Assembly: GCA_903944345.1 (NCBI GenBank)
Contig: CAJARJ010000020.1
Span: 18,110 to 82,109, forward strand
Source: Candidatus Omnitrophota bacterium
GTDB taxonomy: Bacteria > Omnitrophota > Gorgyraeia > Zapsychrales > Fredricksoniimonadaceae
DNA length: 64,000 nucleotides
Reading direction: 5' to 3'
In this document: positions 9,135 through 53,369 of the stretch, piece by piece
How the letters are laid out: each line of letters begins with the position of its first letter
Numbering within the stretch: position 1 is the first letter of the stretch
Notes under the pieces: generated by a model
What the model was told of the DNA's origin: nothing
Database searches by the model: none
Seen by the model: the letters and a program-made list of their open reading frames with translations, nothing else
Program-made: the position numbers and the translations under genes

Positions 9135-9299
9135 AAATCCTTAATAAGTCTCAACAGGAAGACGTCAGGGCCCCCTTCTTGCCACGCGGAAAGCAATACA
9201 TATTGAATTAAATTATAACGAAGAAAGTTAAGAACTGATATTATAATCTCATGTAATGTGGCTCTCTCAGACAATTCCGATACCAAAACCTGAAATCCT

Positions 9300-12231: not shown

Positions 12232-12242
12232 GTCTGATGCCT

Positions 12243-13136: not shown

Positions 13137-13163
13137 GACTCATACTCCTTGTGCATATCCCTG

Positions 13164-15052: not shown

Positions 15053-15217
15053 CGGGCCCGAGGGAAGAACGGAAGAATCCGTCCGACTCCTCCCTAAACA
15101 ACGACAAACAATGGATCCCAGGGTGTGATCAAGCAGCTTGATCCCTTTAAGCGGCCAGCTCCCCTGCGAACGAAAAATATCCCACAGAGTAATCGGCCTC
15201 ATAAACAAGAAACCATC

Positions 15218-23504: not shown

Positions 23505-23639
23505 AATCTTTCTTTCTGCTCCCCAAGAGTTTATAAACACTTAACACCTGCCTGATCCAGGACTTTGCATCCCGGGGCCTCAGACAGACTGACTCGTGAA
23601 AAGCATAGCATAATGGGAAGAGAGGGTACAAGCAGGTAT

Positions 23640-24992: not shown

Positions 24993-26270
24993 TCAGAAAT
25001 TAATCAGCAAGCCCGTGCTTTCGCTCAAAGGCTGCTCAAAATAACTCCCGCGATTTTCTTTGTACGAGTTTTCTGCCAGCAGACGAGCCCGGACAACGTC
25101 GGCAGAGCCTGACAGACGGCCCAGCATGTCCTTGTAAACAGCAGGGAAATACTCTTCTTCCCGGGCTGCAACAAGCACGGCGCGCAAAACCTCCCGCTTG
25201 TTTTCAATAATCGATCGATAGGCTTGCGGTAACCGCGGCAACAACAAACAATGCTCCAGGTAATTAATGGCCCGGATATAGACCTGCCGGGCCTCTGCCA
25301 GAGCCAGATGCGAAGAAAGCACCAAAACACGTGCTTCGCGAACAGAATCGGGCAGCATGTCCAACTGCGCCAGGATCCTGTCAGTAACCGGCACCCCGGG
25401 CAGAGACAAACGGATCAGCTTGCCCTCCGAGACCCGCCCGTCGAGCGAAAAATCTTCTGCCGCCTTCTGCCAGAGGGCGACAAACTCCTGCCGCGCCTCC
25501 GCGACAACAGAGGCAAAGGAACGTTTAGGAAAAACTTCGCTGATATCATTGGCTGTGATCACCACTTCCCCGCTGAGCGCGGCGACCTTGTCACCCTCAT
25601 TAAGCTGTGGAAGTCCCAGCAGTCCCACCGCATCACGCACAACATGCACTGACCTACGCCCGTCTTCAAGCGTCCCGGCATCCTGAATGCAGGGCAGAAA
25701 TGAAAACGGCGCTTTGACCTTGCGACAATCGCCAAGCGCCCGCATCAATCCGTTATCCTGCCTGGCCAGCAGACATTCCCGGACTGAAAGCTTGCGCAAG
25801 CGTTCGTTCAGGTTATCAGAGGGTAAATCCAGCCTTAATAGTCCCAGCTCTTCCAGCAACAAGCTCTGCATGGACTGTGTCCGGTAATGTTTAACAATAT
25901 CTGCCAGCGCGGGACTGGAATACGACAAACGCAACAGGTCATACGCACTGACCGGAACCTTATCCAGCAGGCGTCGGGATAAAAGAGGCCGCAGCCCCTC
26001 CTCAATTTCCTGCCGGAACGCCAGCTCACGATCGTCCAGGCGTACCGGCCGCAGCAGCGGGCCAGTCGAAGCCTTGTCCAGCTCGCTCACTTTGGCTTGG
26101 TGCTGTGCGCGGTCAAGGCCCGGTGTCCGATAATAACAAAACCCCCGGTCGTCAATAACCGCCTTGCGTAAACGGGTATCCGCAGGCGCGTCCGGTGCAA
26201 AAATATCAGCGGCCGCCGGCACTCCCACCAAAAGCAGAACCAGAGGGAACCATCTTAGAACAAACAGCAT
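24993..26270 (-). CDS. hypothetical secreted Leu/Arg-rich helical protein (last gene of the T4SS-like operon; TraH-sized)
   Basis: Start placed at ATG 26270 (MLFVLRWFPLVLLLVGVPAAA, signal-peptide-like), 16 nt inside the traU 3' end. No recognisable motif. Confidence 0.4.
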   Translation of the reverse strand: MLFVLRWFPLVLLLVGVPAAADIFAPDAPADTRLRKAVIDDRGFCYYRTPGLDRAQHQAKVSELDKASTGPLLRPVRLDDRELAFRQEIEEGLRPLLSRRLLDKVPVSAYDLLRLSYSSPALADIVKHYRTQSMQSLLLEELGLLRLDLPSDNLNERLRKLSVRECLLARQDNGLMRALGDCRKVKAPFSFLPCIQDAGTLEDGRRSVHVVRDAVGLLGLPQLNEGDKVAALSGEVVITANDISEVFPKRSFASVVAEARQEFVALWQKAAEDFSLDGRVSEGKLIRLSLPGVPVTDRILAQLDMLPDSVREARVLVLSSHLALAEARQVYIRAINYLEHCLLLPRLPQAYRSIIENKREVLRAVLVAAREEEYFPAVYKDMLGRLSGSADVVRARLLAENSYKENRGSYFEQPLSESTGLLINF

Positions 26271-27157
26271 TCTTTCTGTCTCCAATAAATCCAGACATAA
26301 CTGCCGTCCGCCGAACGCCGGCCGTTCTCCCACAGATCCGCCTGCTCTCCGACGCGCAAGCAACGGCTCTTTGACGGAAAGACCATCTGCAACCGATCCC
26401 TCAATTTGTCTGGCGAGAACATGGCCGGCACAATAATCCGATGCGGAACCAGCATGTTCAACGAAGCAATATCCACCGCCCGGTAGGCTGCCACGGCCGA
26501 GCCGACGGCCTCGCTATAATGAACCAGCTGTCCGGTCCGCGGAAACAACGGCCCCCAGCTGCCCAGACATGCCACAGCCGACAAAGGATGCAGGAAGTTC
26601 TCACACACCGGCCCGGCTGCGGCCAGAAGACGCGCCAGAGGATGCCCTGCTTCCCCGCGACCAACGCGCCACTCGGCAGCGTCAATCTCACTTAAATAGG
26701 ACAATGGCCCCGCAAGATCCGGGGGCCCCTCGCACGGCGCCAGAATAAGAGCAGACACCTGATCAGATAAAGGAAAACCGTAAACATGAACATCGTTCAT
26801 TTGCAAGGCCGTGGTGTCGGAGGCGTACGCGCTCCCGCTGTCGGGAGCGGCCTGACATTCCGCCGCCGCAGTAATGGTCTTGTTCCCCAATGACTGCAAA
26901 AACTTTCCCGCCAACGGACGCAATTCGTCAATCATGACCCGGCCCGGCATCTTGACGGTCTCAACAAGCAAGACCGGTTGACGGTAACGCACTCGCACCC
27001 CCACAAAAGGAGGAGTCGACCGCCGACAAACACCGATCACACGAAAATCCACACAATCCAGATCAGCGCGTAATGCCAGCGTGGACAGACTCTCAGCGCA
27101 GACAGGTACGGACAGCACAAGCCATATCAGCACAGAAACATTTATTACCCGGAACAT
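26255..27157 (-). CDS. traU: F-type conjugative-transfer pilus-assembly protein TraU family
   Basis: 300-aa Cys-rich secreted protein. ...YLSEIDAAEWR... and the C-terminal ...WIYWRQKECCLF closely parallel F-plasmid TraU (...AYLSEIDPTW... and ...LMWRKRNCVFL). AGGAG SD 7 nt upstream. Confidence 0.7.
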   Translation of the reverse strand: MFRVINVSVLIWLVLSVPVCAESLSTLALRADLDCVDFRVIGVCRRSTPPFVGVRVRYRQPVLLVETVKMPGRVMIDELRPLAGKFLQSLGNKTITAAAECQAAPDSGSAYASDTTALQMNDVHVYGFPLSDQVSALILAPCEGPPDLAGPLSYLSEIDAAEWRVGRGEAGHPLARLLAAAGPVCENFLHPLSAVACLGSWGPLFPRTGQLVHYSEAVGSAVAAYRAVDIASLNMLVPHRIIVPAMFSPDKLRDRLQMVFPSKSRCLRVGEQADLWENGRRSADGSYVWIYWRQKECCLF

Positions 27158-28110: not shown

Positions 28111-28551
28111 CTAGAAAGTCGCCAGCCAGGTTTTGGCCCCTGCGTCATAGGAAAGTGTTTCCGCTTTCCCCCGAAACAATCTGGAAAGACCAGCCGCAGC
28201 ATTATCCGGCACACTCGAAAGCGCAATGTCCACCCGGGTGCGATCCGCTGTATTTGCGTTCACCCGATAATCACCGCCATAACTGTTTGCCCCCGTCGGG
28301 TCAAACGTAGCGGGCAAATACCCGGAACTCTTCATGGCTTCGATACTAATACCTTCATACGTCAGACTCATCACCGACAGATAGTTTTGCGCTGCCAGAC
28401 GCAGGTTATCAACCGACTGGGCCTCTCTTTGCAGACGTGCCTGCGCAGCCATCCCCCCTCCAGCACTAATCATGCCGACGAGCATGGCAATAAGTCCCAA
28501 TGCAATCGAAAGTTCAACAAGAGAAAAACCATCATTTTTGTTTACTCGCAT
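28111..28551 (-). CDS. type IV pilin / pseudopilin (prepilin-type N-terminal cleavage/methylation domain)
   Basis: 146-aa ORF. MRVNKNDG|FSLVELSIALGLIAMLVGMI class III signal. AAGGAGGAG SD. Confidence 0.7.
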   Translation of the reverse strand: MRVNKNDGFSLVELSIALGLIAMLVGMISAGGGMAAQARLQREAQSVDNLRLAAQNYLSVMSLTYEGISIEAMKSSGYLPATFDPTGANSYGGDYRVNANTADRTRVDIALSSVPDNAAAGLSRLFRGKAETLSYDAGAKTWLATF

Positions 28552-28582: not shown

Positions 28583-29662
28583 TCATGGGTGCATCATCCC
28601 TATATTTGCCAGATTCCCATACAGCGGCCTGAAAAAGGCAAAAACCAGCAACGCCATCACCCCCGCACACAGAAGGATCAACGCCGGCTGCAAAAAATCA
28701 ACAACCCGCTTGACCCGGGACTCCAGAGAACGCCGGCATAGCTGGTAACCCCGGAAGAAATACTCGTCAAGGCATCCGGATAACTCCCCGACTCTAAGAG
28801 TCTCGCCAACCCAGGAAGGGAAATACGCATCCTGCAAAAACGCGGACGACAGCATCTGCCCGCTGACCAGTCTGGTCCGGCAAGAATTCATGTGATAACG
28901 AGTCCGGCCTCCCGACGCGACAGCTGCCTCCGCCAGAGATTCATCCAGAGTAATTCCGCTTTTAAGCATCAACGACAACAGAAAAAATCCCATGGCCAGC
29001 TCCCGATCCCGAATCAGTCGCCCCACAAAAGGACACCGGGCCTGCCAGCCCGAGAACACAAGCGGCTCGGTTCTTTGCACCAGCCAAAGTCCGCCAACGA
29101 TAAGTAAGACAATTCCCAGCCAAAACGGCCACTGCATCCTCACTGTGCAAGCCAGACGCAACATGCCCCCGGTCAAAGGCCCGGAAAAAGTGCTCTGCGG
29201 CAAAAGGCTGCCCAGCCGCGGAACAATCTCGAACGAAATATAACCGGCAACCAAAAGCAGAATGACCAGCACAAACAAAGGATATCCCATAGCTCCAGCC
29301 AGCTGATGTCCTACCTCGTCGCTGGCATGGTAATATTCCGCCAAAGCCCGGGCTGAACGGGAAATTTGTCCTGCCTTGCCGGCAGCGTTGAGTGCGCGCA
29401 AGGCACATTCTTCGAAAATACCGCACTCCCCCATGGCCTGCCCAAGAGACAAGCCCCGGTCAAGGGAACGAAGCATATGCGCACAGGCCCGCGCCAGCGT
29501 CCGGCTTCCGGAAGCCCCTTCGAGGCAGCGCAGCGCGGCACCAAGCGAGAGTCCGGCAGAAAGCATGTTGGAAAGATCTTCGAAAAAGAACGCGGCCTCA
29601 GCCGCCGACAGCTTCTGCCCGGAATAGAATATCCTTAACCAAGAACCCTGACCGCTTCGCAT
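28583..29662 (-). CDS. type II secretion / type IV pilus platform protein (GspF/PilC family)
   Basis: Two T2SS_F-like repeats with TM helices (..FFFEDLSNMLSAGLSLGAAL.. and ..LAEAAVASGG..). Start chosen at ATG 29662 with a GGAGG SD. The ORF is open to 29854 but would overlap the upstream ATPase by 220 nt. Confidence 0.7.
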   Translation of the reverse strand: MRSGQGSWLRIFYSGQKLSAAEAAFFFEDLSNMLSAGLSLGAALRCLEGASGSRTLARACAHMLRSLDRGLSLGQAMGECGIFEECALRALNAAGKAGQISRSARALAEYYHASDEVGHQLAGAMGYPLFVLVILLLVAGYISFEIVPRLGSLLPQSTFSGPLTGGMLRLACTVRMQWPFWLGIVLLIVGGLWLVQRTEPLVFSGWQARCPFVGRLIRDRELAMGFFLLSLMLKSGITLDESLAEAAVASGGRTRYHMNSCRTRLVSGQMLSSAFLQDAYFPSWVGETLRVGELSGCLDEYFFRGYQLCRRSLESRVKRVVDFLQPALILLCAGVMALLVFAFFRPLYGNLANIGMMHP

Positions 29663-31245
29663 AACGACAACACTCCTTCCCTGACCAAACGACATGCATC
29701 TGCACGCATAGAAACAAACCCCGCGCGGGCGGCCTGCCGGGGCACAAGTTCGCTCATTAACCCCTGCTCGATAAGAAACCGGTCTTCTTCCTCTATACAG
29801 AAAATCTCGGCCACCACTGTCCTCCCGCTGAAGCCACCCCGGCAAGCGGAGCACCCAGCGGGGACAAAAAATTTCCGGTCACTGTGCAAAAGATATGCCT
29901 CGGCACCCGAAGGGATGCCACGGATATCCCCTTCCTTACGGCATTCCGGGCACAATTTACGCACCAGACGCTGGGCTATCACACAATTTAAAGTTGCGGC
30001 CAGATGCGCCCAATCCACGCCAAGGTCTCGCAGACGAAGAAAAGCTCCGGTCGCACTATTGGTATGCAGAGTAGAAAAAACCCGATGTCCGGTCTCTGCC
30101 GCCCGGACAGCCTCGCGAGCGGTTTTCTCGTCGCGAATCTCTCCGACCAGTACAATATCCGGATCATGCCGCAACAAGGCTCTGGTCACATCCGGAAAAT
30201 CGTATCCCTTGGCGCTGTCAACACTGACCTGGGTGACACATGAAGCCCGTACTTCAACCGGATCTTCCACAGATACGATCTTGATCTCGCTATCTTTTAC
30301 CCGACCGATCATGGCATGCAGTCCAGTGGTCTTACCGCAACCGGTCGGACCGGTGATTAAAACCAGTCCATGCGGACGCCGCAAGACGCGCTCCAGCACC
30401 TTCTGGTGTTCCGGCGAATATCCAAGCGGTTCCAGGGACATGGCTTCCCGCCCGCGTTCCAAAAGACGCAAAACCAGCGCAGAACCATTTAAAGACGGCA
30501 AATGGGAAACACGCACATCGACGACCCGTCCCCTGGCCTCAAATTCGAAACGGGCATCATGGAAACGCAAAAAGTCCCCCGCGCTGATCCCGGCACGCCG
30601 AAAAACCCGATTGACAAAAAATGGATGCTCTCCCAGCGGCCAGGAACGGTGAAAATGCAAAACACCGTCGATACGCAACCGGCTCTCGAAAGAAGACGAC
30701 GAAGGCTCGATATGAATATCTGTTGCTCCGGCAACTACAGCCTCGACCAGAATCCGGGCAACAGGATCATCGTCACCGGAATCCGCCCCTTCCGGTTCAG
30801 GACTGACACCACCGCCTGAAGAAGGCCTCAACAACTGCAAGGCCCGGTCAAGAGCACGCGGGGCGGCAACCATAAAAAAGATCTGCGAACCAAAAAGAGC
30901 CCTTAACTCATCGGTCAGTCCGGTCTGCAGGGTATCAGCCAGCACAAAAAATCGGCGTACGGCGCTCCGGGCCGGAAAAATCTTGCGCTTCCTGAAAAAG
31001 TCTTCCCCCAAAGCAGACAAAGCCTCCTGATCCACGCTCCAGTCTCCGTCATAATACGGCCACCCCGACTGCTCTGCTACAGCCCGCGCCACATCTTCTT
31101 CCCGACTCAAATGCTGTTCGACCAGTATCCGTCCCAGACGCCGGCCGCCGCCCTGCGCTTTTTGCACGGCCAGACACATGCTCAAATCTCCTGGACGCAA
31201 CTTATTGCGGCGTATAAGTATAGATCCAAGCCTTTCAGCACTCAT
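29635..31245 (-). CDS. GspE/PilB-family secretion ATPase with MshEN-like N-terminal domain
   Basis: 536-aa ORF. Walker A GPTGCGKTT, Asp/His boxes, tetracysteine CPEC...CSAC. N-terminal ~140 aa resembles the T2SSE_N domain. ATGA overlap with the upstream gene. Confidence 0.85.
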   Translation of the reverse strand: MSAERLGSILIRRNKLRPGDLSMCLAVQKAQGGGRRLGRILVEQHLSREEDVARAVAEQSGWPYYDGDWSVDQEALSALGEDFFRKRKIFPARSAVRRFFVLADTLQTGLTDELRALFGSQIFFMVAAPRALDRALQLLRPSSGGGVSPEPEGADSGDDDPVARILVEAVVAGATDIHIEPSSSSFESRLRIDGVLHFHRSWPLGEHPFFVNRVFRRAGISAGDFLRFHDARFEFEARGRVVDVRVSHLPSLNGSALVLRLLERGREAMSLEPLGYSPEHQKVLERVLRRPHGLVLITGPTGCGKTTGLHAMIGRVKDSEIKIVSVEDPVEVRASCVTQVSVDSAKGYDFPDVTRALLRHDPDIVLVGEIRDEKTAREAVRAAETGHRVFSTLHTNSATGAFLRLRDLGVDWAHLAATLNCVIAQRLVRKLCPECRKEGDIRGIPSGAEAYLLHSDRKFFVPAGCSACRGGFSGRTVVAEIFCIEEEDRFLIEQGLMSELVPRQAARAGFVSMRADACRLVREGVLSLCEAVRVLG

Positions 31246-31697
31246 AACTCCACCCTCAGGACAATAGTTTCCCCCTGCGCACCTGTCAGAATTGCACCAT
31301 TTTCATCAAGCGAACTGACTTCAAAACCGCCAACACGCTCTTTTTCCCTTGCCCAAACTTGCTGGGCATCAAACTGAAAACAGCCCCGCCAAATCCCCGC
31401 GATAGAAACAACCGAACGCAAGGATAGCGTCAGCGACTGCGCCCGGGAAACCCCGTCCTTCGCTATATCACTGACCTGCAATGGGATATCCGTCCCTATT
31501 TTTTTTAACTCGTGCTCTACTCTGGCTTTTTCCAGATCAAGCTGCAACAGACGCAAGGATTGCTCTTTATCCTGCACACTGGAAGAATATGCTCTTAAGC
31601 GCGACAAAGATTCCTTCATATCCTCTTCTCCTGCTCTGACCGGACCTGACTGCAGCAAAAATGCTGCCACAATTACGGCTATTCCTGTTTTGATCAT
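31242..31697 (-). CDS. hypothetical periplasmic protein with signal peptide (part of pilus/secretion module)
   Basis: 151-aa ORF. MIKTGIAVIVAAFLLQSGPVRA signal peptide. ATGA-coupled to both neighbours. No motif recognised. Confidence 0.35.
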   Translation of the reverse strand: MIKTGIAVIVAAFLLQSGPVRAGEEDMKESLSRLRAYSSSVQDKEQSLRLLQLDLEKARVEHELKKIGTDIPLQVSDIAKDGVSRAQSLTLSLRSVVSIAGIWRGCFQFDAQQVWAREKERVGGFEVSSLDENGAILTGAQGETIVLRVEL

Positions 31698-32188
31698 CCT
31701 TTCACCTGCTCCCCTTTCACAACAATGACCAGCGTTAATACATCTTTTGTTTGTTTAAACTCTTCGAGCTCGAACAATCCTGAACGCATCCCCCCCGAGA
31801 TCACCGCCAACACCCGGCCCAGCATGGCCCGGTCACGGACAGACCCCAGCGATACCTGCAGGCGCGAAGAGTCCAACCCGTCGGCAGCCTCTGGCGAATC
31901 TGTGGAGGTCTGCCCCAAAGAGATTGTTTGCAGAAACACCGAAACTCCTTCCGCCCGGGTCAGATCCTGCAAAAATAGCGTCAGTCGTTCATGCGCCCCT
32001 GAAAGATCATCCGGTCGGCTGTGCGGTAAACTTTGCAAATTCTTTAAACGGCCCCCATCTTGCTGTAACCGGACACGAATCTCCTGCAAGGAAGTCTCCA
32101 CTGCGCGGACAGACTGGTAAACCCCAAGACCATTGTATAAACAGGACACAACCAATCCGCCGGCAAACAGCACAAGAAACAAGCGCAT
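31694..32188 (-). CDS. GspM/PilO-like bitopic inner-membrane protein (assignment by topology only)
   Basis: 164-aa ORF. N-terminal TM (LFLVLFAGGLVVSCLY) followed by a coiled-coil-like periplasmic region. Position is between the GspL-like gene and the ATPase. Confidence 0.35.
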   Translation of the reverse strand: MRLFLVLFAGGLVVSCLYNGLGVYQSVRAVETSLQEIRVRLQQDGGRLKNLQSLPHSRPDDLSGAHERLTLFLQDLTRAEGVSVFLQTISLGQTSTDSPEAADGLDSSRLQVSLGSVRDRAMLGRVLAVISGGMRSGLFELEEFKQTKDVLTLVIVVKGEQVKG

Positions 32189-32210
32189 ACCTTCCCTCTC
32201 TCAACAGACA

Positions 32211-33335
32211 TTAAAATCGCGGCTCAACCCGTACAGAGACCTCGACTGCCGGCCGTCCACCCTGAAAAATGCGGTTCAGCTTTCTTTGATGAAAAAGACC
32301 CTCCCGACCAAAACTTCCTTCTCCGCGCACAACAAGAACCGCACCAAAATGCCCTCCGCCTTGCGCATCAGCCCGCCATTGCAGGCTCGCCACAGTCCAT
32401 TCGGGCGGCATATTCCAGATCAATTGATAGAACAACTCATCAAGATTCACTGCCTGCCGGCGGCGCAAGCGTTCCTGATAGGTCTGCGCCAATGCCGAAC
32501 GCAGCAACACATACTGACTGTCCACCTCACGGCTCAACTCCGCACGTAAACTTTCCAACCGGCCAAGATGCTGACGCATAAAAAGATTACCGACGACAAG
32601 CAGACAACCAGTCCCCGCTACCAGTGCCCCTATAACCCAGGATCTTCGGCGACGCACAGAGGTTTCACGGCGTGAAAGCTCCTCAGGGGGCAGGAACCCG
32701 GTTGCAGGATTCCAGAAGCCCGCCGCCAGAAGCCCCGGCGACCCGGCGTCCATCCGCCGGGTCCGCCATCCGGTCTGTGCGGATATTTGCTCAAGACAGG
32801 GATGATTCGAAATTATGCACCGTTTATCCACAGCTGTGCACAACCTGGCACTGCGATGCAGTTCTTCCACTAACGCAGCAGTCTCCAAAGAAGGAAATTC
32901 ACGCGTCTCAACCACCCTGCCGTCCTCGATCACTGTAAGCAAGACCAAACCGCAGATTTCTTCAAGCACCATAACGACTCCGTCAGGAATACCCTGCTCG
33001 TGCCTGACAAAATATTGAGCGACCGCAAGCCCATACGGCGCGCAGCAGGCAATATTGTTCCCGGGGAACAGAGAAAAAATTTCACGGATCCGTTCAACCG
33101 GCATGGCCGCCAAAGAGAATCCCCCACCAGGCAGGCTTTGCTCCATATAAACATTGCTCTGCCCGGATGAAGTCTTGCTGTATGTCTTTTTATCCTCAAA
33201 AACAACCCCGGTCACCAGAACCTGTACCGGCTCCCGGAGAAATGAAAATTCGTCCTTAACGGCATTTCTGGGTATACGACGCAATTGTCCTTGCGTTTCA
33301 TAAATCACGCTGTCAAAAGTAAATACAAGTGTCAT
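32211..33335 (-). CDS. GspL/PilM-PilN-like protein: cytoplasmic domain, single TM, periplasmic domain (assignment by architecture)
   Basis: ATG at 33335 overlaps the secretin stop (TGATG). ~220-aa cytoplasmic region, TM (SWVIGALVAGTGCLLVVGNLFM), ~130-aa periplasmic helical region. Confidence 0.4.
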   Translation of the reverse strand: MTLVFTFDSVIYETQGQLRRIPRNAVKDEFSFLREPVQVLVTGVVFEDKKTYSKTSSGQSNVYMEQSLPGGGFSLAAMPVERIREIFSLFPGNNIACCAPYGLAVAQYFVRHEQGIPDGVVMVLEEICGLVLLTVIEDGRVVETREFPSLETAALVEELHRSARLCTAVDKRCIISNHPCLEQISAQTGWRTRRMDAGSPGLLAAGFWNPATGFLPPEELSRRETSVRRRRSWVIGALVAGTGCLLVVGNLFMRQHLGRLESLRAELSREVDSQYVLLRSALAQTYQERLRRRQAVNLDELFYQLIWNMPPEWTVASLQWRADAQGGGHFGAVLVVRGEGSFGREGLFHQRKLNRIFQGGRPAVEVSVRVEPRF

Positions 33336-34792
33336 CACAAGCCCTCCCTTGCGGGCGTCAGCATAATGACCAGTTCACTTCGGACACTCCGGCGGGTATC
33401 ATAAGAAAAGATACGCCCCAGAAACGGCAGACGGCCAAGAACCGGAACCCCGTGATGTCTGACCAGCGTATTGCGGGTAATAAGCCCACCAATAACTGCG
33501 GTCTGGCCAAAACGCAAACGCACCATGCTGCTCATCGATTTGACTGATGTTTCCGGAGCCTCAACCCGCGCGCCCTGGCCTAGCTCAACCGAACGGATAT
33601 CGTCAATCATGCTGACCACCGGAGTCACATTGATAAAAACCTCATCTCCAACAATATTCCCCATTAACTGCAGGGTCACTCCTCCATGCACATCCCCCAG
33701 GGTGACCGCGCTGATGGTCTGCCCCGTCTGGCTCATTGTGATGCCGCTCGAATCAATATAAGACCGGGTTTGCCCGACCTGGATACCGGCCAGGGTATTG
33801 TTCAGCATCGTAACCCGCGGCTGGGACACCACCTCAACCCGGCCAAAAACCTCCAGCGCGCGGATCAAGGATGTCACCCCTCCCTGGATTGCCCCTTGCC
33901 CATCTTCTGCTGACAGTTTCAAATAACCTCCGCCAGCAACATTCTCCCCGGAAAAATCCACCACGGCATTCAGGCTGTCCCGGCCTTTACGCTGAAGTAA
34001 TACGTTCCAGTCAATCCCCAGCTTGTGTTCGTTGGAAAGTTCGACTTCAACCAACTTGATATCGGCAAAGATCTGCCGCGACACCCGGGCATTGATTTCA
34101 TCCATAAATGAAGCCACCCGGCTCAACGCCACCGGCGCATCGGTAACCACCGCCAGTCCTCCGCTGCGATTCAGCGAGAGTGTCCCTGCCGGGGTCAACA
34201 AAGAACGGATATTGCGTTCAATATCATCCCAATACGACAACTCGCCGCTTTTGTTCTCCAGAAAAAGACCCGCCCCCACACGCACTCGTCCGGAGGCGCT
34301 ATTCTCTCCCGTCTGCACGCCTCCAGCCCGGCTTTCATTTGATGTCAGGCTTTCCCCTTTCTGCACAACCGGAGGAAGAAATACAGAGAAAATCCTGGTC
34401 TCGCTGGCCAGGACAACAAGATCTTCGCCCTGCTGCCGGACACCATAACCATCAGCATAAACAACGGCTTCCAATGCCCGTTCGACCGTAACCCCGGACA
34501 ACCGCAGATTGATCTCTTTGTCCCGAACACCCGGGCCGATAATCAGATTCTTACCCGCCGCATCGGCCATCAGCTGTAACACTTCATACAAACGAAAACG
34601 GCCGTTGAGCTTGACCGGCAGCGTCGGGGTTTGCTCCGGCATCTGCGCTATGGATTGACGTTCTTCCTGAATAGCCGCCGGACGGGCAGCAACACGTGCC
34701 CATTCTTCGGCCACAACCTTGTTTTCCTGCATCTCGGCCTTGGCCGGAACACTCAACAACATAAGACCCAAAAGCACCCACCCTGTTTTCAT
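33335..34792 (-). CDS. secretin (GspD/PilQ family outer-membrane channel)
   Basis: Start at ATG 34792 (MKTGWVLLGLMLLSVPAKA signal peptide; ATGA overlap with the upstream lipoprotein stop). C-terminal secretin signature ...GVPVLGRLPFLGRIFSYDTRRSVRSELVIMLTP. Confidence 0.8.
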   Translation of the reverse strand: MKTGWVLLGLMLLSVPAKAEMQENKVVAEEWARVAARPAAIQEERQSIAQMPEQTPTLPVKLNGRFRLYEVLQLMADAAGKNLIIGPGVRDKEINLRLSGVTVERALEAVVYADGYGVRQQGEDLVVLASETRIFSVFLPPVVQKGESLTSNESRAGGVQTGENSASGRVRVGAGLFLENKSGELSYWDDIERNIRSLLTPAGTLSLNRSGGLAVVTDAPVALSRVASFMDEINARVSRQIFADIKLVEVELSNEHKLGIDWNVLLQRKGRDSLNAVVDFSGENVAGGGYLKLSAEDGQGAIQGGVTSLIRALEVFGRVEVVSQPRVTMLNNTLAGIQVGQTRSYIDSSGITMSQTGQTISAVTLGDVHGGVTLQLMGNIVGDEVFINVTPVVSMIDDIRSVELGQGARVEAPETSVKSMSSMVRLRFGQTAVIGGLITRNTLVRHHGVPVLGRLPFLGRIFSYDTRRSVRSELVIMLTPAREGL

Positions 34793-35220
34793 TCGAGCTC
34801 TCCTTGCGTAATTTTCTGCCCCGATCCCGGCATCGGGGTTATGTCTGCGACAATAAACGCCCCGGAATGCGTCGGCGATTGCACCACTGGTACTGACAAA
34901 GGGAAAGCTCCGCTTTTCTTCCATTCCCCCGGGGTGATAATGACCGGCTCGGCATGCCGGGGATAAAAAACACCATCGGCAATATGCGCCGGAATGATCA
35001 CATCCTGAACCAGAGGAGCGCTCCAGCTGCCGTCAAGATACGGGAAATCATTACCGTTTAACCCTTCAACCACGTCTCCTATCTGTGCCGACACACCGGC
35101 TCGATACCCCTGCAAATACGTACCGCGTTCCCTGCGGCTGAAGTTCTTCTGCCCCACGCAACCGGCAGAGGCCAGCAGAACAACCACCAATCCCACCCAA
35201 CATCCCCTAACGTAACCCAT
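34789..35220 (-). CDS. lipoprotein (candidate secretin pilotin or TraW/TrbC-position accessory protein)
   Basis: Start at ATG 35220 (MGYVRGCWVGLVVVLLASAGC, lipobox LASAGC). 143 aa. The ORF is open further upstream but would overlap traC. Confidence 0.45.
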   Translation of the reverse strand: MGYVRGCWVGLVVVLLASAGCVGQKNFSRRERGTYLQGYRAGVSAQIGDVVEGLNGNDFPYLDGSWSAPLVQDVIIPAHIADGVFYPRHAEPVIITPGEWKKSGAFPLSVPVVQSPTHSGAFIVADITPMPGSGQKITQGELE

Positions 35221-37723
35221 GTGGCATCTTTCCGGCGCACACCATAAGCGCCCTGGTGAGGTTCCCATCCTGTTGACGACGAATTTCATCCAGAAATTCG
35301 TTCTCCCTGGCATCGCTGGTTGCCGCCCAATACAAAAAAGGATCAGGAGCCAGACGAATGACCCCGCCGCCTGTACCGGCAAGCAGCAAAGCTTCTGAAT
35401 AGCGCCCCCGCACCGTAACCAGAGAACGCAAAAGTTCCCCGGTCTGCGGACTAAAGGCCAGCTCCCGGCACAACCGTTCAATAATCCCGCTTTCCTGACG
35501 TAAAAATATCTTGTGCGCGCTATTCGCCAGGATGGCCAATCCTGCCGGCTGCTGCAACAAGTCAGCGGTTTCCTGGGTCACCGCCACAGCCGCACAGCGA
35601 TATTTCCGAAACGTTTTGAAAGCCGCCGAAATGAAATCCGCTGTCGATGACGTTTTTAACAACTGCCAGGCCTCATCAATAATCAGAAACTTGTTTTTAC
35701 CGCGCAATTCCTCGGCCGAAACAAAGCCGGTTATCAAAAACATGATATTAAGCAAGGCCACCAGTTGCAGATCCGGGTAACGGGAGATTTGTGCCAGTTC
35801 AAAGACCGTAAAACGTCCTCCGGGTGCAAATTGATTCTGCCCGTCAAAGAAAGCCCCATACTGTCCCCTGCGGGTATAGGGCATAAGTCGCAGGGCCAGG
35901 CGAAACGCCATATCTGCTCCGCTGACCCCGGCGAAACAAACCGAAGGATCTTCCAGAACGGATACCACATCGCTTAGAACCAGCTCCCGACTACTGTTTT
36001 GATCATGCCGGGCATACGCCTCCAGCACAGCCAGATGCAGAACCCCTTTCTCTTCCCGCGAAAGGCGGTCACGTTCGTCCCCTCCGCTGGCCATTAATGC
36101 CAGCATATCTACCAGAAAAGCCAGCCCCTCGGACTGAAGCGTCCTGGCAAAAGGATTTATCAACACCGGGGAAGACATATCGAGTGAAACATAGCTGCCA
36201 CCCAGCACCTCGCAGGTCTTCCGGTAAGAGTGCCCCTTGTCGAGCACAAAGAAATGCGCTCCGGTCCGGTAGTTCTGATGAATAAAATCATTGGTAAAAA
36301 ATGATTTCCCTGCTCCTGAAGCGCCAATAATCACCGCATGCGGATTGGTGTCGGAATCAAACAGATCGAAGAACACCGGCTCCCCCCTGCGGTTAAGATA
36401 AACCGCCGCCGGCGTGCCAGTTCCCTGGAAGGCCCCATATAAAGGAAGCATATCCGCAAGATTGTCCGATAACATTCGCCTTTTACGTCGGATAAAAGGT
36501 TCGCGGCGATGATCATAATTCAATGGCAGGCAAGTCAGAAACAATGACGACCCGATAGCATCTTCCCGCACAGCCTGCATTCCACTGCGGCCCAGAAGAT
36601 GAATAATATGATCGGCCTGTCGCAACGACTCCTGCTCGTCAACACTGCCGCAGACAAAATGAATCCTGGCCTCAAGAACCGACTGTCCTCCCTGAAAAAG
36701 CCGGCTAATGACCGCACTAAGCTCTTCTTTCTTGCCTACGGCCTCCTCGCTGACATCTCCCAGCGAGGAAGACCGACGGATGAAAGCAAAAGCTTTCTGT
36801 GCCTTGAGCTTGGCGAGCGCCCGGCTCTGATCAGGCACAATAAAGTTGAAGACCATAGCCATATCGCCCAGCTCATCCCAGAAGCTTCCTCTGTGCCCGG
36901 CCAGCAACATCCCGGCGAAAGTCTGTGCGGGAAGCTCTTTAATGGTGACCATCCGCAGGGTCGTGCCGTCAAGTTTCAGCCCTTCGGAAGATATTTTCAC
37001 CGGACTATACAAAAGCTGATCCCGAATAAAACCCTGATCCCGAACGGGAGGCGGAACATGCTGCGAACGGCGGGGATTGAGCATTTTATACAAAAGAGCA
37101 GTTATGTCCTTTCCATCCAGGCAGACACAGGCAAGCCCCAGTGAACGCAGACCATTCTCGATCTGGCGAACCTGCCGCAAAAATTTCTCTTTATGTTCCT
37201 GCCATTGAAGAGAAATGACGCGTGACACCTGACGAGTATCACAAAAGAAAGCCTCTGCCCTGACCCCGCCAGGCACATTCCGCCAGGAAGGAAAGACGCG
37301 CACCGAGAAAATCAGCCTGATCCGCCTGACTTTCACTCGGTCCATCGTTTGTCCGTTTCGCGCCAGTGCGACCATGGAGGTCAAACGGCTGTCAAGCGCT
37401 GCGGCCACCACTTCCGAATTCTGCGCGCAACCAAACAAGCGATAACGCTCCAGCAAAGGCTCAATATCATCACTCCCCCATAGAATCACCTGCGCGTGTA
37501 CATCCGACGGAAGAGTTCCGATAAAAGCGGCCAATCCCAAAGAAAATTTTTCCCGCTCCTCGTCACAGGCCAGCTCCACATCACGGCTGACGATTTGCCA
37601 GACCCGACCCAGGCTGCCATCAACATTCAGTAATACGCCCTCAACCTCTTCTGCATAGGGCAAGTAATCAGCCAAAGATGGGCCATCGGCAAAAAGCTTG
37701 TTTATATCCTGGTCTTTCAACAT
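35207..37723 (-). CDS. traC: F-type T4SS ATPase TraC (VirB4 family)
   Basis: 838-aa ORF. Walker A VIIGASGAGKSFFTND, Walker B FLIIDEAWQLL. Size and position (after TraV-like lipoprotein, before TraU) match F TraC. Confidence 0.8.
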   Translation of the reverse strand: MLKDQDINKLFADGPSLADYLPYAEEVEGVLLNVDGSLGRVWQIVSRDVELACDEEREKFSLGLAAFIGTLPSDVHAQVILWGSDDIEPLLERYRLFGCAQNSEVVAAALDSRLTSMVALARNGQTMDRVKVRRIRLIFSVRVFPSWRNVPGGVRAEAFFCDTRQVSRVISLQWQEHKEKFLRQVRQIENGLRSLGLACVCLDGKDITALLYKMLNPRRSQHVPPPVRDQGFIRDQLLYSPVKISSEGLKLDGTTLRMVTIKELPAQTFAGMLLAGHRGSFWDELGDMAMVFNFIVPDQSRALAKLKAQKAFAFIRRSSSLGDVSEEAVGKKEELSAVISRLFQGGQSVLEARIHFVCGSVDEQESLRQADHIIHLLGRSGMQAVREDAIGSSLFLTCLPLNYDHRREPFIRRKRRMLSDNLADMLPLYGAFQGTGTPAAVYLNRRGEPVFFDLFDSDTNPHAVIIGASGAGKSFFTNDFIHQNYRTGAHFFVLDKGHSYRKTCEVLGGSYVSLDMSSPVLINPFARTLQSEGLAFLVDMLALMASGGDERDRLSREEKGVLHLAVLEAYARHDQNSSRELVLSDVVSVLEDPSVCFAGVSGADMAFRLALRLMPYTRRGQYGAFFDGQNQFAPGGRFTVFELAQISRYPDLQLVALLNIMFLITGFVSAEELRGKNKFLIIDEAWQLLKTSSTADFISAAFKTFRKYRCAAVAVTQETADLLQQPAGLAILANSAHKIFLRQESGIIERLCRELAFSPQTGELLRSLVTVRGRYSEALLLAGTGGGVIRLAPDPFLYWAATSDARENEFLDEIRRQQDGNLTRALMVCAGKMPHGLR

Positions 37724-37725: not shown

Positions 37726-38133
37726 CTATGGCTCCTTGGCCGTATCCGGAACTTGCGGAATAATGACGGACATCTCCTGATCCATTCCCTGTTGTCGATC
37801 AATAAACCATTCGGCCGGGCGCAACATCACAAATGCCCAGTGCCCGCCAACCATTACCTCCCGCTCTCCTCCGGAAACATGCGCGGGCACCCAGACTTTG
37901 ATAACCTTGGGAGGAAGAACAACGGGGACATACGGCTTCACATGCCCTGTATCGACTCCCCAAACCACCGTTTGTGACTCTTTCTCTGCCCCCGAAGACC
38001 GGGCAGCAGCACGATACGTTCCTCCCAAGGTCACAGCGTCTTTCCTGACGACACTCACCGGACCTCGTGCAGACAAAGAGCAGCCGCTAGTCAACAGAAC
38101 GATAAAAATCAACCGAATCCCGAGCCATCCCAT
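37726..38133 (-). CDS. TraV-like outer-membrane lipoprotein
   Basis: 135-aa ORF. MGWLGIRLIFIVLLTSGCS lipobox. Position between TraB and TraC as in the F tra operon. No sequence motif beyond the lipobox. Confidence 0.45.
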   Translation of the reverse strand: MGWLGIRLIFIVLLTSGCSLSARGPVSVVRKDAVTLGGTYRAAARSSGAEKESQTVVWGVDTGHVKPYVPVVLPPKVIKVWVPAHVSGGEREVMVGGHWAFVMLRPAEWFIDRQQGMDQEMSVIIPQVPDTAKEP

Positions 38134-39241
38134 GGATACGAAATCCTTTCTGTACGATCACATACACACGTACTCCCGGTTGAACCATCACTGCCGGAAC
38201 AATCATGTCCAGTTGCTGCTGGTAGTACCGCGACAACTGTGCGGTGCTCTGGGCCATCCCCGAAAAAAGCGCATGTTTGGCCGCATTGCCGGTCAATGTC
38301 CGTGACTCTTTCCCGTCTTGCGTAACGGCAGAGACTTCCCCGTCGGCGACAGCCTGCGAAGCTCCGCCCATAAACCCACTCATAAACGATGCCGCCAGAC
38401 GCCCTGCGGTATTGCGCACAACCACACCTTTAAGCCCCAGCTGCCCCGAACGATCCGTCAAATACCCGAAAACTCCCGACTGTTCAAAACTTGCTCCTGT
38501 CGGAAAAACAGCCGCCAGTTTTTCCGCTTCAATCAAAGCCCGCTCGCTGTTAAGATCGCCCGTCGCCTTGCCCAGAACAAAAGCTCCTTCAAGTGCAATC
38601 GCCGAAGCATTCGGACCGGTAAAGGCTTCATCAAGCCTGATCAGGACGGGCAAAGAATTGTTCCCGTCCGCCGGAGCGTACACTCCGGTCAACAGTGTCC
38701 CCGACACAAAGCTGCCCGCCGGCAGATACACATCCATGGACTCCTGATCGGGTTCCTGCACGGCTACTATGTCAAGCTGCTGGCGTGATTCTGCCCCATT
38801 CTTGTCTGCTGGTTCGCTCCCTTCCCTACGTAACCGTTTGGCAACCGCCTGCAGGCTCAGCACAGCAGTTTTTGTTTTCTTTATCGATTCACGCATCTCC
38901 TCGAACCTGGTGTTAAGTTTTGTAACCTTGCGGGACATTTCGTCATTCTTGCGTGCGACACTGTCATATTGTTTTTCCAGGCGTTCGACATAAGCCTTGC
39001 GATCCACCTCTTCTCCCAGAAACATTCCTCTGCCCGTATCTTTAAGTTGCCCTGTCGAAGAAACAGCCTGTACGACACCATGAGACTCCTGCCCTTTGCC
39101 TCTCTCCTGTTTTGACGAAAAGACAAACATCAGGACAAAAAAAAGAGCCGCTCCCGCCGCAATAATCAGCAGACCGCTCTTCTCACTTCCGGACCCAACC
39201 CTTTCAAACAAACCGCGCAAGCGGGCTAACAAATCTTTCAT
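38087..39241 (-). CDS. traB: F-type T4SS core protein TraB (VirB10 family)
   Basis: 384-aa ORF. N-terminal TM (LLIIAAGAALFFVLMFVF), coiled-coil region, C-terminal beta-rich domain ending ...IVPAVMVQPGVRVYVIVQKGFRI typical of VirB10/TrbI. Confidence 0.65.
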   Translation of the reverse strand: MKDLLARLRGLFERVGSGSEKSGLLIIAAGAALFFVLMFVFSSKQERGKGQESHGVVQAVSSTGQLKDTGRGMFLGEEVDRKAYVERLEKQYDSVARKNDEMSRKVTKLNTRFEEMRESIKKTKTAVLSLQAVAKRLRREGSEPADKNGAESRQQLDIVAVQEPDQESMDVYLPAGSFVSGTLLTGVYAPADGNNSLPVLIRLDEAFTGPNASAIALEGAFVLGKATGDLNSERALIEAEKLAAVFPTGASFEQSGVFGYLTDRSGQLGLKGVVVRNTAGRLAASFMSGFMGGASQAVADGEVSAVTQDGKESRTLTGNAAKHALFSGMAQSTAQLSRYYQQQLDMIVPAVMVQPGVRVYVIVQKGFRIHGMARDSVDFYRSVD

Positions 39242-39957
39242 CGCCTTAACACCAGATACAGGGTTGTAGAATCACTCTTACGTCCGCGTGCCTGCAAGAT
39301 GTCTCGCTCAACCGTGCCAAGCAGCAGTCCCGGCAAACTCAACCTTTGCAGAGGAATCACCAATGCCCGACCAAGCAGATTCTCAGCCCGCACCACCCAT
39401 CCTTTAAGTTGGGCTGTCGTATAACTCCTGATCACAGTCAGACGCATGGTCTTATCCTGCCAGAGCAGCTCCGAATCGCTTGACTCCGTCGCGCCAGAAG
39501 GCTTTTGCCCTAAAACCATGGCCTTGAGCATGCCCAAAGCATGATCTTGCCTGAAGGAAACAGCGGCCGTATCTCTGGAGATATAAATACGTTCCCCCGA
39601 AAAAACCTGTTGCTCAAGAGAAAGCTCCGAGGAGGAAAACCTGATCCTGAAAGAACGACCTCCACGATCAATAATCACCAATTCAGAATTATCACAACGC
39701 CGTGGCGTAACAAAAACCCGGCCGGGCGCATGTTCTACCTCGAGCGCTTCGGAACTTCCTGAACGAACCAGGTGCGACACTCCGCCCTCGACAACTATCT
39801 CGGTCATGTGCCCCGGAGTGCACGCAATCAGGCTGCTTCCCTCTTGCTCAATACGTAGCGGCACCTGCGCCTCGGCCAAAGTACAGACAAAACATAATCC
39901 AAGAACAAAACCCAAGACCCTAAAGCGCATCCTCATCTGCCTCCTTTGACCAGACAT
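39238..39957 (-). CDS. TraK-like secreted protein (VirB9 / secretin-N-like), by size, signal peptide and position
   Basis: 239-aa ORF with signal peptide (RFRVLGFVLGLCFVCTLAEA). ATGA overlap with traB. The start may be 21-27 nt downstream. Confidence 0.5.
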   Translation of the reverse strand: MSGQRRQMRMRFRVLGFVLGLCFVCTLAEAQVPLRIEQEGSSLIACTPGHMTEIVVEGGVSHLVRSGSSEALEVEHAPGRVFVTPRRCDNSELVIIDRGGRSFRIRFSSSELSLEQQVFSGERIYISRDTAAVSFRQDHALGMLKAMVLGQKPSGATESSDSELLWQDKTMRLTVIRSYTTAQLKGWVVRAENLLGRALVIPLQRLSLPGLLLGTVERDILQARGRKSDSTTLYLVLRR

Positions 39958-40507
39958 CCTCTACAACAAGACCATAAATATTCTCTCCAGCCGCCGGGAC
40001 TCGCCGCACAACAACAACATAACGCACATCTTTCATTGCAATTTCTTCCTTGCCCATATAAACCCCGCGCTTGCCGTCGATTTCTACCCGGAATGAGCGC
40101 CCTTCGGAAGCAACCCGTGCGTCATCTGTAAGCGTAAATATCGATGAAAGCCGGTCAGAAAGAATCTTTCCGCGTTCCTCCTGCGAACGGGCGCGGACTT
40201 TGGAAAGCAGCTGTGGTCCCATAAACCGGAAAGCCCGCGAATAAACTCCGTCAATCGTCTCTGGAGTATAATTCATCCAGTCCATTAACCAGGCCGAAGC
40301 GAAAGAAAGAACCGAACTTTCTGGTATCCGGTCGGGATAAGCCAGGCCCGCTTGTGCTGCCCCCGGAATATAATAGATCGGACGGGGCCGAAACGCTGTC
40401 ACCGCCAGCAATACAGCGAATATCACGCTTAAGCTTCCCAAAAGATAAAGAACATAATGCAGTTTTACATTCTCGAATTCCGCTCCGGCATAACGTTCAA
40501 AAAACAT
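39920..40507 (-). CDS. TraE-like bitopic protein (VirB8-like) of F-type T4SS
   Basis: Start at ATG 40507 with AAGGAAGG SD (MFFERYAGAEFENVKLHYVLYLLGSLSVIFAVLLAV). N-terminal TM plus periplasmic domain. Size 195 aa versus F TraE 188 aa. Confidence 0.55.
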   Translation of the reverse strand: MFFERYAGAEFENVKLHYVLYLLGSLSVIFAVLLAVTAFRPRPIYYIPGAAQAGLAYPDRIPESSVLSFASAWLMDWMNYTPETIDGVYSRAFRFMGPQLLSKVRARSQEERGKILSDRLSSIFTLTDDARVASEGRSFRVEIDGKRGVYMGKEEIAMKDVRYVVVVRRVPAAGENIYGLVVEDVWSKEADEDAL

Positions 40508-40793
40508 CCTGGCCTTCCTTGCTATAAATGCTGTAAAAACGCTCGGGCCCCGGCGGCAGCAATCCTCTGAAGCCAACTCCCTGCCGGTACAGCCAATGAA
40601 TCAGATATCCTTCCGGTTTCCCGCGCTTGAACGCGGCCAGACATGGCCAGATGAAAAACAACGCGATCAACGGAACTGCCGGAGAAAACACAATTGCCGG
40701 TACCCCGCACAATAAAAGAATCACAGCGACATCTTCACCCTCAAGGCCCAGAATAAGAAGAGGCCGGTCAATTGTTCTTGGACACGGTTTCAT
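40497..40793 (-). CDS. TraL-like small membrane protein (VirB3-like)
   Basis: 98-aa ORF. ...RTIDRPLLILGLEGEDVAVILLLCGVPAIVF... resembles the TraL/VirB3 N-terminal motif (P..i.GL...E...). Position right after the pilin gene as in F. Confidence 0.55.
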   Translation of the reverse strand: MKPCPRTIDRPLLILGLEGEDVAVILLLCGVPAIVFSPAVPLIALFFIWPCLAAFKRGKPEGYLIHWLYRQGVGFRGLLPPGPERFYSIYSKEGQDVF

Positions 40794-42373: not shown

Positions 42374-42402
42374 AATATAGCATAAATTGACATCATGTCA
42401 AT
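42374..42402 (-). promoter_or_regulatory. sigma70-like promoter (TTGACA-N16-TATATT) for the T4SS-like operon, -35 overlapped by the perfect palindrome ATTGACATCATGTCAAT
   Basis: Read on the minus strand: TTGACA = complement of 42396-42401, TATATT = complement of 42374-42379. The palindrome attgacat c atgtcaat spans 42386-42402. Located in the 105-bp gap between rfbB and the first operon gene. Confidence 0.5.
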
Positions 42403-53298: not shown

Positions 53299-53369
53299 CT
53301 GCCCCGCATGGATTCGAACCATGGCCCACGCCTCCAAAGGGCGGTGTGCTACCATTACACCACAGGGCA
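53299..53369 (-). tRNA. tRNA-Gln (anticodon UUG)
   Basis: Hand-folded: acceptor stem TGCCCTG/CGGGGCA with the U1:A72 pair typical of bacterial tRNA-Gln, D-arm GTGT-AATGGTA-GCAC, anticodon loop CTTTGGA (TTG), T-arm CATGG-TTCGAAT-CCATG. No encoded CCA. Confidence 0.85.

Follow-up and report, generated by a model that had tools for sequence, protein, structure and literature searches.

Does a secretin encoded in the middle of a conjugation gene cluster serve the conjugation machine, or does it belong to a second machine that shares the same operon? This question is raised by a stretch of 64,000 nucleotides (nt) from a Candidatus Omnitrophota bacterium (GenBank assembly GCA_903944345.1, contig CAJARJ010000020.1), hereafter called the window, by which we mean the whole 64 kb. 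A preliminary description of this DNA had recognized a secretin with GspE-, GspF-, GspL- and GspM-like proteins inside a block of type IV secretion system (T4SS) genes and had asked which protein forms the outer-membrane pore. Our analysis suggests that the locus encodes a complete type IV pilus built into the operon of a reduced F-like T4SS, and that the two are separate machines acting in sequence. We assign this reading a probability of about 0.6.

A pilus gene block between traC and traU

The genes named in the preliminary description are all present on the minus strand (Table 1). They belong to a run of 19 genes that extends from 42332 down to 24993, and in which adjacent genes overlap or are separated by 31 nt or less. 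The run starts with the genes for a TraG_N-like protein and for TraA, TraL, TraE, TraK, TraB, TraV and TraC, continues with the pilus genes and ends with those for TraU and a TraH-like protein. The pilus block, from the lipoprotein gene to the second pilin gene, thus sits between traC and traU: the 3' end of traC overlaps the lipoprotein gene by 14 nt and traU starts 21 nt past the second pilin gene, so that the embedding in a T4SS block is confirmed. Seven of the proteins (lipoprotein, secretin, GspL-like protein, PilO/GspM-type candidate, PilP/GspC-HR-like protein, ATPase and platform protein) are encoded between 28583 and 35220, and two prepilin genes directly follow the platform gene. The limits of these open reading frames (ORFs) match gene-caller boundaries on identical public contigs, and public contigs as long as 335-630 kb encode identical proteins. 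Two features had been overlooked before, namely the gene at 31242-31697 and the reduced state of the T4SS, which has no type IV coupling protein (T4CP) or relaxase within the 64 kb.

The pil and tra genes are predicted to be co-transcribed as one operon, because the 19 genes are so closely spaced, with many overlaps, and because one strong promoter-like site lies upstream and a terminator after the GAPDH gene. The core of the promoter-like site is kept in a congener (contig L019). The terminator, a consensus match, is the sole one with a long stem and lies 3' of the GAPDH gene, the next gene after the operon. No riboswitch or other RNA was detected with Rfam within or ahead of the operon.

Table 1. 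Features of the Pil/Tra operon, from its upstream to its downstream end (scores in bits, followed by the cutoff where given; aa, amino acids; TM, transmembrane segments).
Feature	Coordinates	Strand	Basis
Best sigma70-like promoter match, TTGACA-16-TATATT with TG	42374..42401	-	Consensus match only; top in 20-kb region, just upstream of operon
TraG_N/VirB6-like polytopic inner-membrane protein, 417 aa	41079..42332	-	5 TM; no Pfam match of its own
TraA/VirB2-like conjugative pilin, 95 aa	40795..41082	-	Signal peptide and two hydrophobic helices; NF041281 E 3.6e-4, sub-cutoff; precedes traL
TraL (VirB3-like)	40497..40793	-	TIGR02762 31.7 vs 30.95
TraE (VirB8-like)	39920..40507	-	Pfam TraE 31.2 vs 24.8
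TraK-like (VirB9 position), secreted, 230 aa	39238..39930	-	Positional; weak TIGR03749 E 0.0055; conserved in relatives
TraB (VirB10-like)	38087..39241	-	Pfam TrbI 82 vs 35; NF010289 (F-type TraB) 1.1e-17
TraV-like lipoprotein (VirB7 role)	37726..38133	-	Pfam TraV 19.1 vs 21; LLTSGC lipobox
TraC (VirB4 ATPase)	35207..37723	-	TraC_F_IV 88.2; P-loop_TraG 141.2; TIGR02746 5e-117, below equivalog cutoff
Lipoprotein, putative secretin partner, 143 aa	34789..35220	-	...LLASAGC signal sequence; no family match
Secretin, 485 aa	33335..34792	-	Pfam Secretin PF00263 99.8 vs 27.5
GspL / PilM-PilN-type bitopic assembly protein, 374 aa	32211..33335	-	AlphaFold2 model and fold search
PilO/GspM-type candidate, 164 aa	31694..32188	-	Topology from low-confidence model
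PilP / GspC-HR / GspB-like periplasmic protein, 151 aa	31242..31697	-	Signal peptide, coiled coil, small beta domain
Extension ATPase, GspE/PilB/MshE family	29635..31245	-	Pfam T2SSE PF00437 325.9
Platform protein, GspF/PilC family, 359 aa	28583..29662	-	Pfam T2SSF PF00482 112.8, two stretches
Major pilin candidate, 146 aa, 8-residue leader, G|FSLVE	28111..28551	-	N_methyl 23.2 vs 21.2
Minor/tip pilin with phage tail-fibre receptor-binding domain, 307 aa	27179..28102	-	N_methyl 22.2; Collar 90.1; Gp10_C
TraU (F-type-specific periplasmic assembly protein)	26255..27157	-	Pfam TraU 99.5 vs 26.5
Divergent TraH-like secreted protein, 425 aa	24993..26270	-	No direct family match; transitive homology

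The secretin, the ATPase and the platform protein are identified unambiguously from their family matches, and the earlier calls of a secretin and of a GspF-like platform are borne out. The C-terminal motif GVPVLGRLPFLGRIF...ELVIMLTP of the secretin is legible in the translation, and the gene is not a pseudogene, being intact in every relative examined. By sequence, the nearest relatives of the secretin are BfpB, PilN and MshL. MshL is the best NCBIfam match (3.9e-54; 183.6 bits against a cutoff of 250.2), the PilN model of type IVb pili (TIGR02520) gives 1e-44 (153 bits against 287.65), BfpB is the best PDB relative (2.4e-14), with PilQ also present, and the best plasmid matches are PilN secretins of conjugative plasmids (24-28% identity). 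In two relatives, lipoprotein and secretin form a single ORF, the former being joined in frame to the N-terminus of the latter (L006 8154-9797 and L007 12414-14075; 547-553 aa). This fusion supports the idea, already suggested by gene adjacency, that the two proteins are physically partnered. The lipoprotein of contigs L008 and L009 has a canonical LAGC lipobox. Separately, tblastn coordinates suggest a similar fusion in L014 and L015.

The ATPase shows the Walker A motif GPTGCGKTT and the tetracysteine motif CPEC...CSAC, so that its family and both motifs stand as first described; the N-terminal domain, which had been called MshEN-like, falls slightly under both curated cutoffs (Pfam MshEN, 22.4 against 23.1; NF053729, 37.9 against 38). 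Control of the ATPase by cyclic di-GMP (c-di-GMP) through this MshE-like domain is likely.

Three families that sequence profiles miss can be added to the module. The 374-aa protein had no match in Pfam, NCBIfam or the PDB sequences, either alone or as a family profile, and 18 members of its family likewise failed to match the GspL, PilM and PilN models; an exhaustive HMMER scan of 1.84 billion representative proteins gave 21 relatives. The AlphaFold2 model, built with 18 relatives, is confident, with a pLDDT (predicted local distance difference test) score of 85.9. It shows a cytoplasmic actin-like domain, one very long TM/coiled-coil helix and a small periplasmic ferredoxin-like alpha/beta domain. 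Foldseek placed PilM at the top (1.3e-9), and the cytoplasmic domain of PulL was among the matches listed. The GspL-like call, which formerly rested on topology, is thus correct for architecture and fold as modelled, while membership in the GspL, PilM or PilN families is not recovered by sequence profiles.

The 164-aa protein is a candidate of the PilO/GspM type. Its model (pLDDT 56.5, 30 homologues) combines a TM helix at the N-terminus with a coiled coil and a domain of the order alpha-beta-beta-alpha-beta-beta, a topology that fits the earlier GspM-like call. The fold search with this poor model returned nothing at E<=0.001; PilO, PulM and XcpY (E 0.03-0.08), as well as the periplasmic domain of PulL, appeared only among generic ferredoxin-like folds. 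The protein and its family profile gave only chance matches in Pfam and PDB. Indirect support comes from the spread of the family (n=161, labelled Omnitrophota wherever named) and from P0016, a 521-aa protein of an Omnitrophica metagenome-assembled genome (L013 536-2101), in which a GspL-like protein is fused to a C-terminal domain like the 164-aa protein. When the 164-aa and 374-aa families were compared with hhalign, just this fused C-terminal extension of P0016 aligned, and no paralogy was seen. An hhalign comparison of both families with single PilO2 and PilP sequences of a Yersinia plasmid gave nothing, a single-sequence template being too weak to count against the assignments. Finally, the 151-aa protein fits a secretin connector of the PilP/GspC-HR type. 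Three of ten members of its family match Pfam T2SSB at 1.4e-5, the window protein itself having no match, and the alignment with an HR domain of GspC is weak (E 1.1).

Both pilins carry the class III signal announced in the preliminary description (G-1, hydrophobic +1, E+5), in the form G|FSLVE and G|FSLIE after leaders of 6-8 residues with Phe+1; in addition to N_methyl, TIGR02532 scores them above its cutoff (20.2 and 25.1 against 16.3). Within the module, the gene for the 146-aa pilin shows the highest conservation against the congener (96.6% identity, ratio of nonsynonymous to synonymous substitution rates, dN/dS, of 0.04). The PDB relatives of the 307-aa pilin are the short tail fibre gp12 of phage T4 and long tail fibres (1e-8 to 1e-6). 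Phage T4 gp12 binds lipopolysaccharide (LPS), and the 307-aa pilin is most simply read as an adhesin. A scan seeded with the pilin-collar alignment, and in particular with its collar-domain motif, gave 80 loci, of which 9 were pilin fusions and the remainder mostly unrelated tail-fibre or collar proteins.

The 'Gsp' labels used at first suggested a type II secretion system (T2SS), an identification that we rejected. The Gsp equivalog models score far under their cutoffs (GspE TIGR02533, 333.7 against 630; GspF TIGR02120, 126.6 against 424; GspD TIGR02517, 98.5 against 351). There is neither a GspC with a PDZ domain nor a GspH-K set, and only two pilins are encoded, one of them an adhesin fusion. 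The kinship of the secretin with BfpB, PilN and MshL and the gene order, which is that of a type IVb pilus (T4bP), point the same way. Judged from its sequences, the module is an unassigned pilus of T4bP/MSHA-like type that falls under the membership cutoffs of both the R64 and the MSHA (mannose-sensitive haemagglutinin) types. It resembles the MSHA pilus in the sub-cutoff MshL match of the secretin and in the borderline match of the ATPase N-terminus to the c-di-GMP-binding domain of MshE, and the succession of a fused PilM-N-like, a PilO-like and a PilP-like protein presumably resembles MshI/J/K. In contrast to the MSHA locus, it has no MshM or MshN in the window, its secretin gene stands before and not after the alignment genes, and it is embedded in a T4SS operon.

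The closest functional precedent is the thin pilus, an accessory type IVb pilus encoded by conjugation systems of IncI plasmids such as R64 (PilL-PilV) and TP114. The order lipoprotein, secretin, bitopic actin-fold protein (in the PilO2 position), small protein or proteins, ATPase, platform, major pilin and adhesin pilin is that of the IncI-type pilus, and the pilus genes of the window are collinear with the T4bP operon of the Yersinia plasmid p_153kb, save for one extra small gene. As in R64 and TP114, a minor pilin bears a variable receptor-binding C-terminus. In these plasmids, the pilus and its PilV adhesins stabilize mating pairs in liquid and select recipients by binding LPS, whereas the T4SS moves the DNA (PMC9045228). 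The differences are also clear. The partner T4SS of R64 and TP114 is I-type (Dot/Icm-like), in contrast to the F-like system of the window and the P-type system of one relative (L017), and their pil genes form a separate operon instead of lying inside the tra operon. The window cluster lacks the prepilin peptidase (PilU), lytic transglycosylase (PilT), second ATPase and pilV shufflon of R64, its pilins have short leaders with Phe+1 unlike the long-leader type IVb pilins, and the adhesin domain adopts a phage gp12-like collar/tail-fibre fold. Moreover, the locus is chromosomal, and T4CP and relaxase are not nearby.

The T4SS half of the operon resembles the F-type systems (MPF_F; F, pED208) in the order TraA-L-E-K-B-V-C and in the presence of TraC_F_IV, TraE, TraL, TrbI and TraU domains together with TraH-like and TraG_N-like proteins. 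It differs in that the pilus genes, from lipoprotein to second pilin, fill the trbI-traW position. The TraG_N call is made through a homologue in L008 (29% identity) that matches Pfam TraG_N at 6.5e-11, and the TraH-like call through an ORF of L018 bearing Pfam TraH (25% identity, E 5e-20). The TraC_F_IV, TraE, TrbI and TraU domains all score above their Pfam cutoffs. Among the NCBIfam equivalogs, TraL alone passes, TraC, TraE, TraB and TraU being below cutoff. Several of the T4SS proteins also match models of integrative and conjugative elements (ICEs; PFL_47xx / MPF_G-type).

Conservation and partners of the pilus module

At least 10 related contigs show the interleaved order again, at 35-51% identity. 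Contigs with this order are L006-L009, L011, L012, L015, L018, L019, L021, L022, L031 and L050, and the same junctions are found in independent metagenome contigs (L021, L022, L031 and L050). Distant relatives, whose TraC is 44-51% identical, are named Candidatus Omnitrophica or Omnitrophota and, in three cases, 'uncultured Planctomycetales'. They have the same interleaved order in other genomic surroundings; for instance, the genes that flank the operon in the window have no counterparts beside the cluster in L006-L009. In the congener L019, all 19 genes are intact, with 72-97% amino acid identity and the same flanks. The dN/dS values against L019 range from 0.04 to 0.24 for 19 of 19 genes, indicating purifying selection. 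The intact genes and these values therefore exclude a decaying remnant. A megablast search of plasmids with an 8-kb segment gave nothing.

The relatives also reveal variants. In L008 (3077-6101) and L009 (414-3435), genes for a 257-aa Replic_Relax protein and a 755-aa T4CP (TraG-D_C, T4SS-DNA_transf) are located between those for TraG_N and TraA. Such an in-cluster pair is confined to this clade and is found in neither the window nor L006 and L007. Its presence ties the pil-tra family to DNA conjugation. In L017 (9347-13580), the same pilus module is directly followed by genes for TrbC, VirB3, VirB4/TrbE and TrbL, that is, by a P-type T4SS. One lineage has a split cluster, in which the genes for ATPase, platform, pilins, TraU and TraH are still together among housekeeping genes. 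The association of the pilus with a T4SS is strong and recurrent, and it is not obligatory.

Some minor observations concern individual relatives. A toxin-antitoxin pair separates traC from the secretin gene in L015 (7839-8364), and another is inserted in the cluster of L014 or at its border (4968-5571); the types seen in these two contigs are PhD/ParE and PIN. In L014, a GGDEF gene is located immediately upstream of the secretin gene. Several genes are fragmented in the 2.15-Mb contig L018 (GspL-like protein in pieces of 130 and 253 aa, platform 283 aa, TraC 677 aa), which could reflect either frameshift errors of long reads or true decay in that lineage.

Two machines or one

In our best reading, which draws on R64 and TP114, two machines cooperate, a pilus for adhesion and a channel for transfer. 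The secretin and its partner lipoprotein, the connectors of GspL/PilMN, PilO/GspM and PilP/GspC-HR type, the ATPase and the platform would polymerize the 146-aa pilin, the GspL/PilMN-type protein linking the cytoplasmic MshE-like ATPase to the periplasm, and extension of the pilus would probably be gated by c-di-GMP. The 307-aa pilin would be incorporated, by analogy at the tip, and could bind a surface glycan of another cell. Once contact is made, the T4SS (TraA, L, E, K, B, V, C, TraG_N, TraU and the TraH-like protein) would form the transfer junction with its own TraV/K/B outer-membrane complex. The outer-membrane core complex (OMCC) solved for F plasmids is composed of TraV/TraK/TraB (PMC8770708). 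Since the operon encodes such a TraV/TraK/TraB set and, for the pilus, a secretin accompanied by proteins of GspL, PilO and PilP type together with ATPase, platform and pilins, the default expectation is that each machine makes its own outer-membrane pore. The coexistence of a secretin with VirB10- and VirB9-like proteins, from which the puzzle of the pore arose, is real; the puzzle itself is weakened, as IncI plasmids likewise combine a secretin-dependent pilus with a T4SS that has an outer-membrane complex of its own, and the operon has its own TraV/TraK/TraB. What is transferred may be DNA, by means of a T4CP encoded elsewhere, or proteins, or the pilus may serve for contact alone; the question arises because there is no T4CP or relaxase within the 64 kb and several F-type assembly genes are missing.

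A number of observations weigh against a complete pilus paired with a working F-like channel. On the side of the T4SS, the F-type proteins TraW, TrbC, TraF and TraN were not found in the window, nor were TraD and TraI or any other T4CP or relaxase, and the TraK, TraV and TraA calls combine position with sub-threshold matches. On the side of the pilus, the window has no retraction ATPase and, as already noticed in the preliminary description, no A24 prepilin peptidase among the Pfam-scanned ORFs, by tblastn with a plasmid A24 peptidase or among the polytopic ORFs, which are all otherwise assigned; supply of this peptidase in trans is usual. The PilO/GspM call for the 164-aa protein comes without a significant fold match. 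Lastly, the pilus module stands alone, with no adjacent tra genes, in L037 and perhaps in L014.

The alternative that survives best, although we consider it unlikely, is that the locus has ceased to serve self-transfer and encodes a domesticated organelle for interaction with a host or prey. In it, the pilus would seize a partner cell and the T4SS, devoid of a T4CP, would carry proteins or other cargo across, the whole being kept vertically in ultra-small, probably host-dependent Omnitrophota. The location speaks for it, the locus being chromosomal with housekeeping flanks that are syntenic in the congener, as do the purifying selection on every gene, the absence of T4CP and relaxase from the window and from L006 and L007, and the lineage in which the cluster has been split and yet retained among housekeeping genes. 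A large secreted protein with PKD and papain-like domains (1980 aa) is encoded just downstream in both congeners, and members of the phylum have been predicted, at phylum level, to be symbionts or predators that use pili (PMC10066038). However, the known T4SSs that translocate effectors require a T4CP, which is not seen here, no effector candidates were identified, and the T4CP and Replic_Relax proteins of L008 and L009 point to DNA transfer as the ancestral function.

A DNA-uptake apparatus, in which a ComB-like T4SS and a secretin-dependent type IV pilus import environmental or partner DNA, seems to us improbable. The ComB system of Helicobacter pylori uses VirB2-4 and VirB6-10 without VirD4, VirB11 or relaxase (PMC7366825), and the window T4SS, likewise chromosomal, shares both this core and these absences; type IV pili that use a secretin are, furthermore, the usual route of DNA uptake. 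ComB differs in being P-type, in lacking any type IV pilus or secretin associated with it, and in that its DNA uptake has been shown experimentally. Against such a role in the window, ComEA, ComEC and DprA were not found there, the tail-fibre adhesin on a pilin suggests binding to cell surfaces instead of DNA, the F-specific TraU and TraH are kept, and relatives possess a T4CP.

We find it very hard to favour a single chimeric machine, in which the secretin would replace or extend the outer-membrane complex of the T4SS and thereby become the exit of the conjugative channel or pilus. In its favour, pil and tra genes are strictly interleaved and translationally coupled, TraU and TraH stay linked with the pilus genes where the cluster is split, and several F-type periplasmic assembly genes are missing. 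On the other hand, a full TraV/TraK/TraB set is retained, which is enough for an F-type OMCC (PMC8770708), and the secretin comes with its full alignment set (GspL-, PilO- and PilP-like proteins) as well as its own ATPase, platform and pilins. In addition, the pilus module is also joined to an unrelated P-type T4SS and also found alone, and IncI plasmids show that both machines can coexist independently. Least credible of all is a T2SS or a decaying ICE remnant: Gsp-family models do rank among the top matches of the ATPase, platform and secretin, and decay could explain the missing T4CP and relaxase, but the sub-cutoff equivalogs, the lack of a PDZ-containing GspC and of GspH-K and the adhesin-type second pilin speak against the former, and 19 of 19 intact genes under purifying selection, in an order conserved down to 35% identity, against the latter.

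If the reading as two cooperating machines holds, the locus brings an IncI-like pairing of pilus and T4SS to a deeply branching uncultured phylum, in an interleaved form, with a P-type partner as well, and in chromosomal versions that, although devoid of coupling protein and relaxase, are under purifying selection. Accessory conjugative type IV pili are already known. To our knowledge, they have been found almost only on enterobacterial plasmids of the IncI complex and a few ICEs, as separate operons beside I-type or GI-type T4SSs. The literature that we searched contains no description of a pilus interleaved in a single operon with an F-like T4SS; nor does it report one pilus module shared by two T4SS classes, a pilin tipped with a tail fibre, the three profile-invisible assembly proteins or T4CP-less chromosomal copies under selection in Omnitrophota. 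The locus is thus a concrete candidate for the apparatus with which these ultra-small, probably host-dependent bacteria make contact with other cells, and it is a natural test case for whether type IV pilus and T4SS machines ever couple physically. It is tempting to go further and to propose, quite tentatively and with more doubt than confidence, that Omnitrophota possess a composite organelle, a tail-fibre-tipped pilus plus a coupling-protein-less, F-derived T4SS, which would be lineage-specific, vertically kept, obligatorily co-expressed and act jointly on other cells. Such an organelle would be a 'grappling hook plus conduit' for epibiotic or predatory contact and not a means of plasmid spread, and selection for the combined function would then explain why one pilus module is recurrently paired with T4SSs of two unrelated classes.

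Surroundings of the operon

A perfect palindrome, ATTGACAT-C-ATGTCAAT, lies at 42386-42402, overlapping the -35 element of the best promoter-like site of the operon. It is found once in the window (expected 0.03) and its core, TTGACA-N3-TGTCAA, is retained in L019. The palindrome is a possible operator.

The flanks of the operon are housekeeping chromosome, with rmlABCD and genes for GAPDH, MTHFR, HisG, a GHMP kinase, a pseudouridine synthase, an ABC-F protein and a SurA-like protein; the window further contains two-component genes and a cluster of radical-SAM and glycosyltransferase genes. No integrase or replicon was found in the window. A lone tRNA gene is located about 11 kb upstream of the operon (53299-53369, minus strand); because there is no integrase near it, it does not count as evidence for the boundary of an island.

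Directly downstream of the operon and the GAPDH gene, and in the same position in L019, the secreted 1980-aa protein (17598-23540, minus strand) contains one PKD and one papain-like Peptidase_C1 domain together with six InlB B-repeats. It could be a cargo of the system or a surface protein that functions together with it. In Omnitrophota, large proteins encoded beside secretion loci are a theme already reported (West-Roberts 2023 preprint). The secretion locus found beside giant genes in that study is another system, Tad/T2SS-like with RcpC.

The first part of the window (1-17000) holds three B12-binding radical SAM genes, one SPASM radical SAM gene and another radical SAM gene, two GT9 heptosyltransferase-like genes, methyltransferases, a UbiA prenyltransferase and a YfhO-like protein with 14 TM. 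From this gene content, the cluster looks like a locus for an unusual modification of an envelope glycan or lipid.

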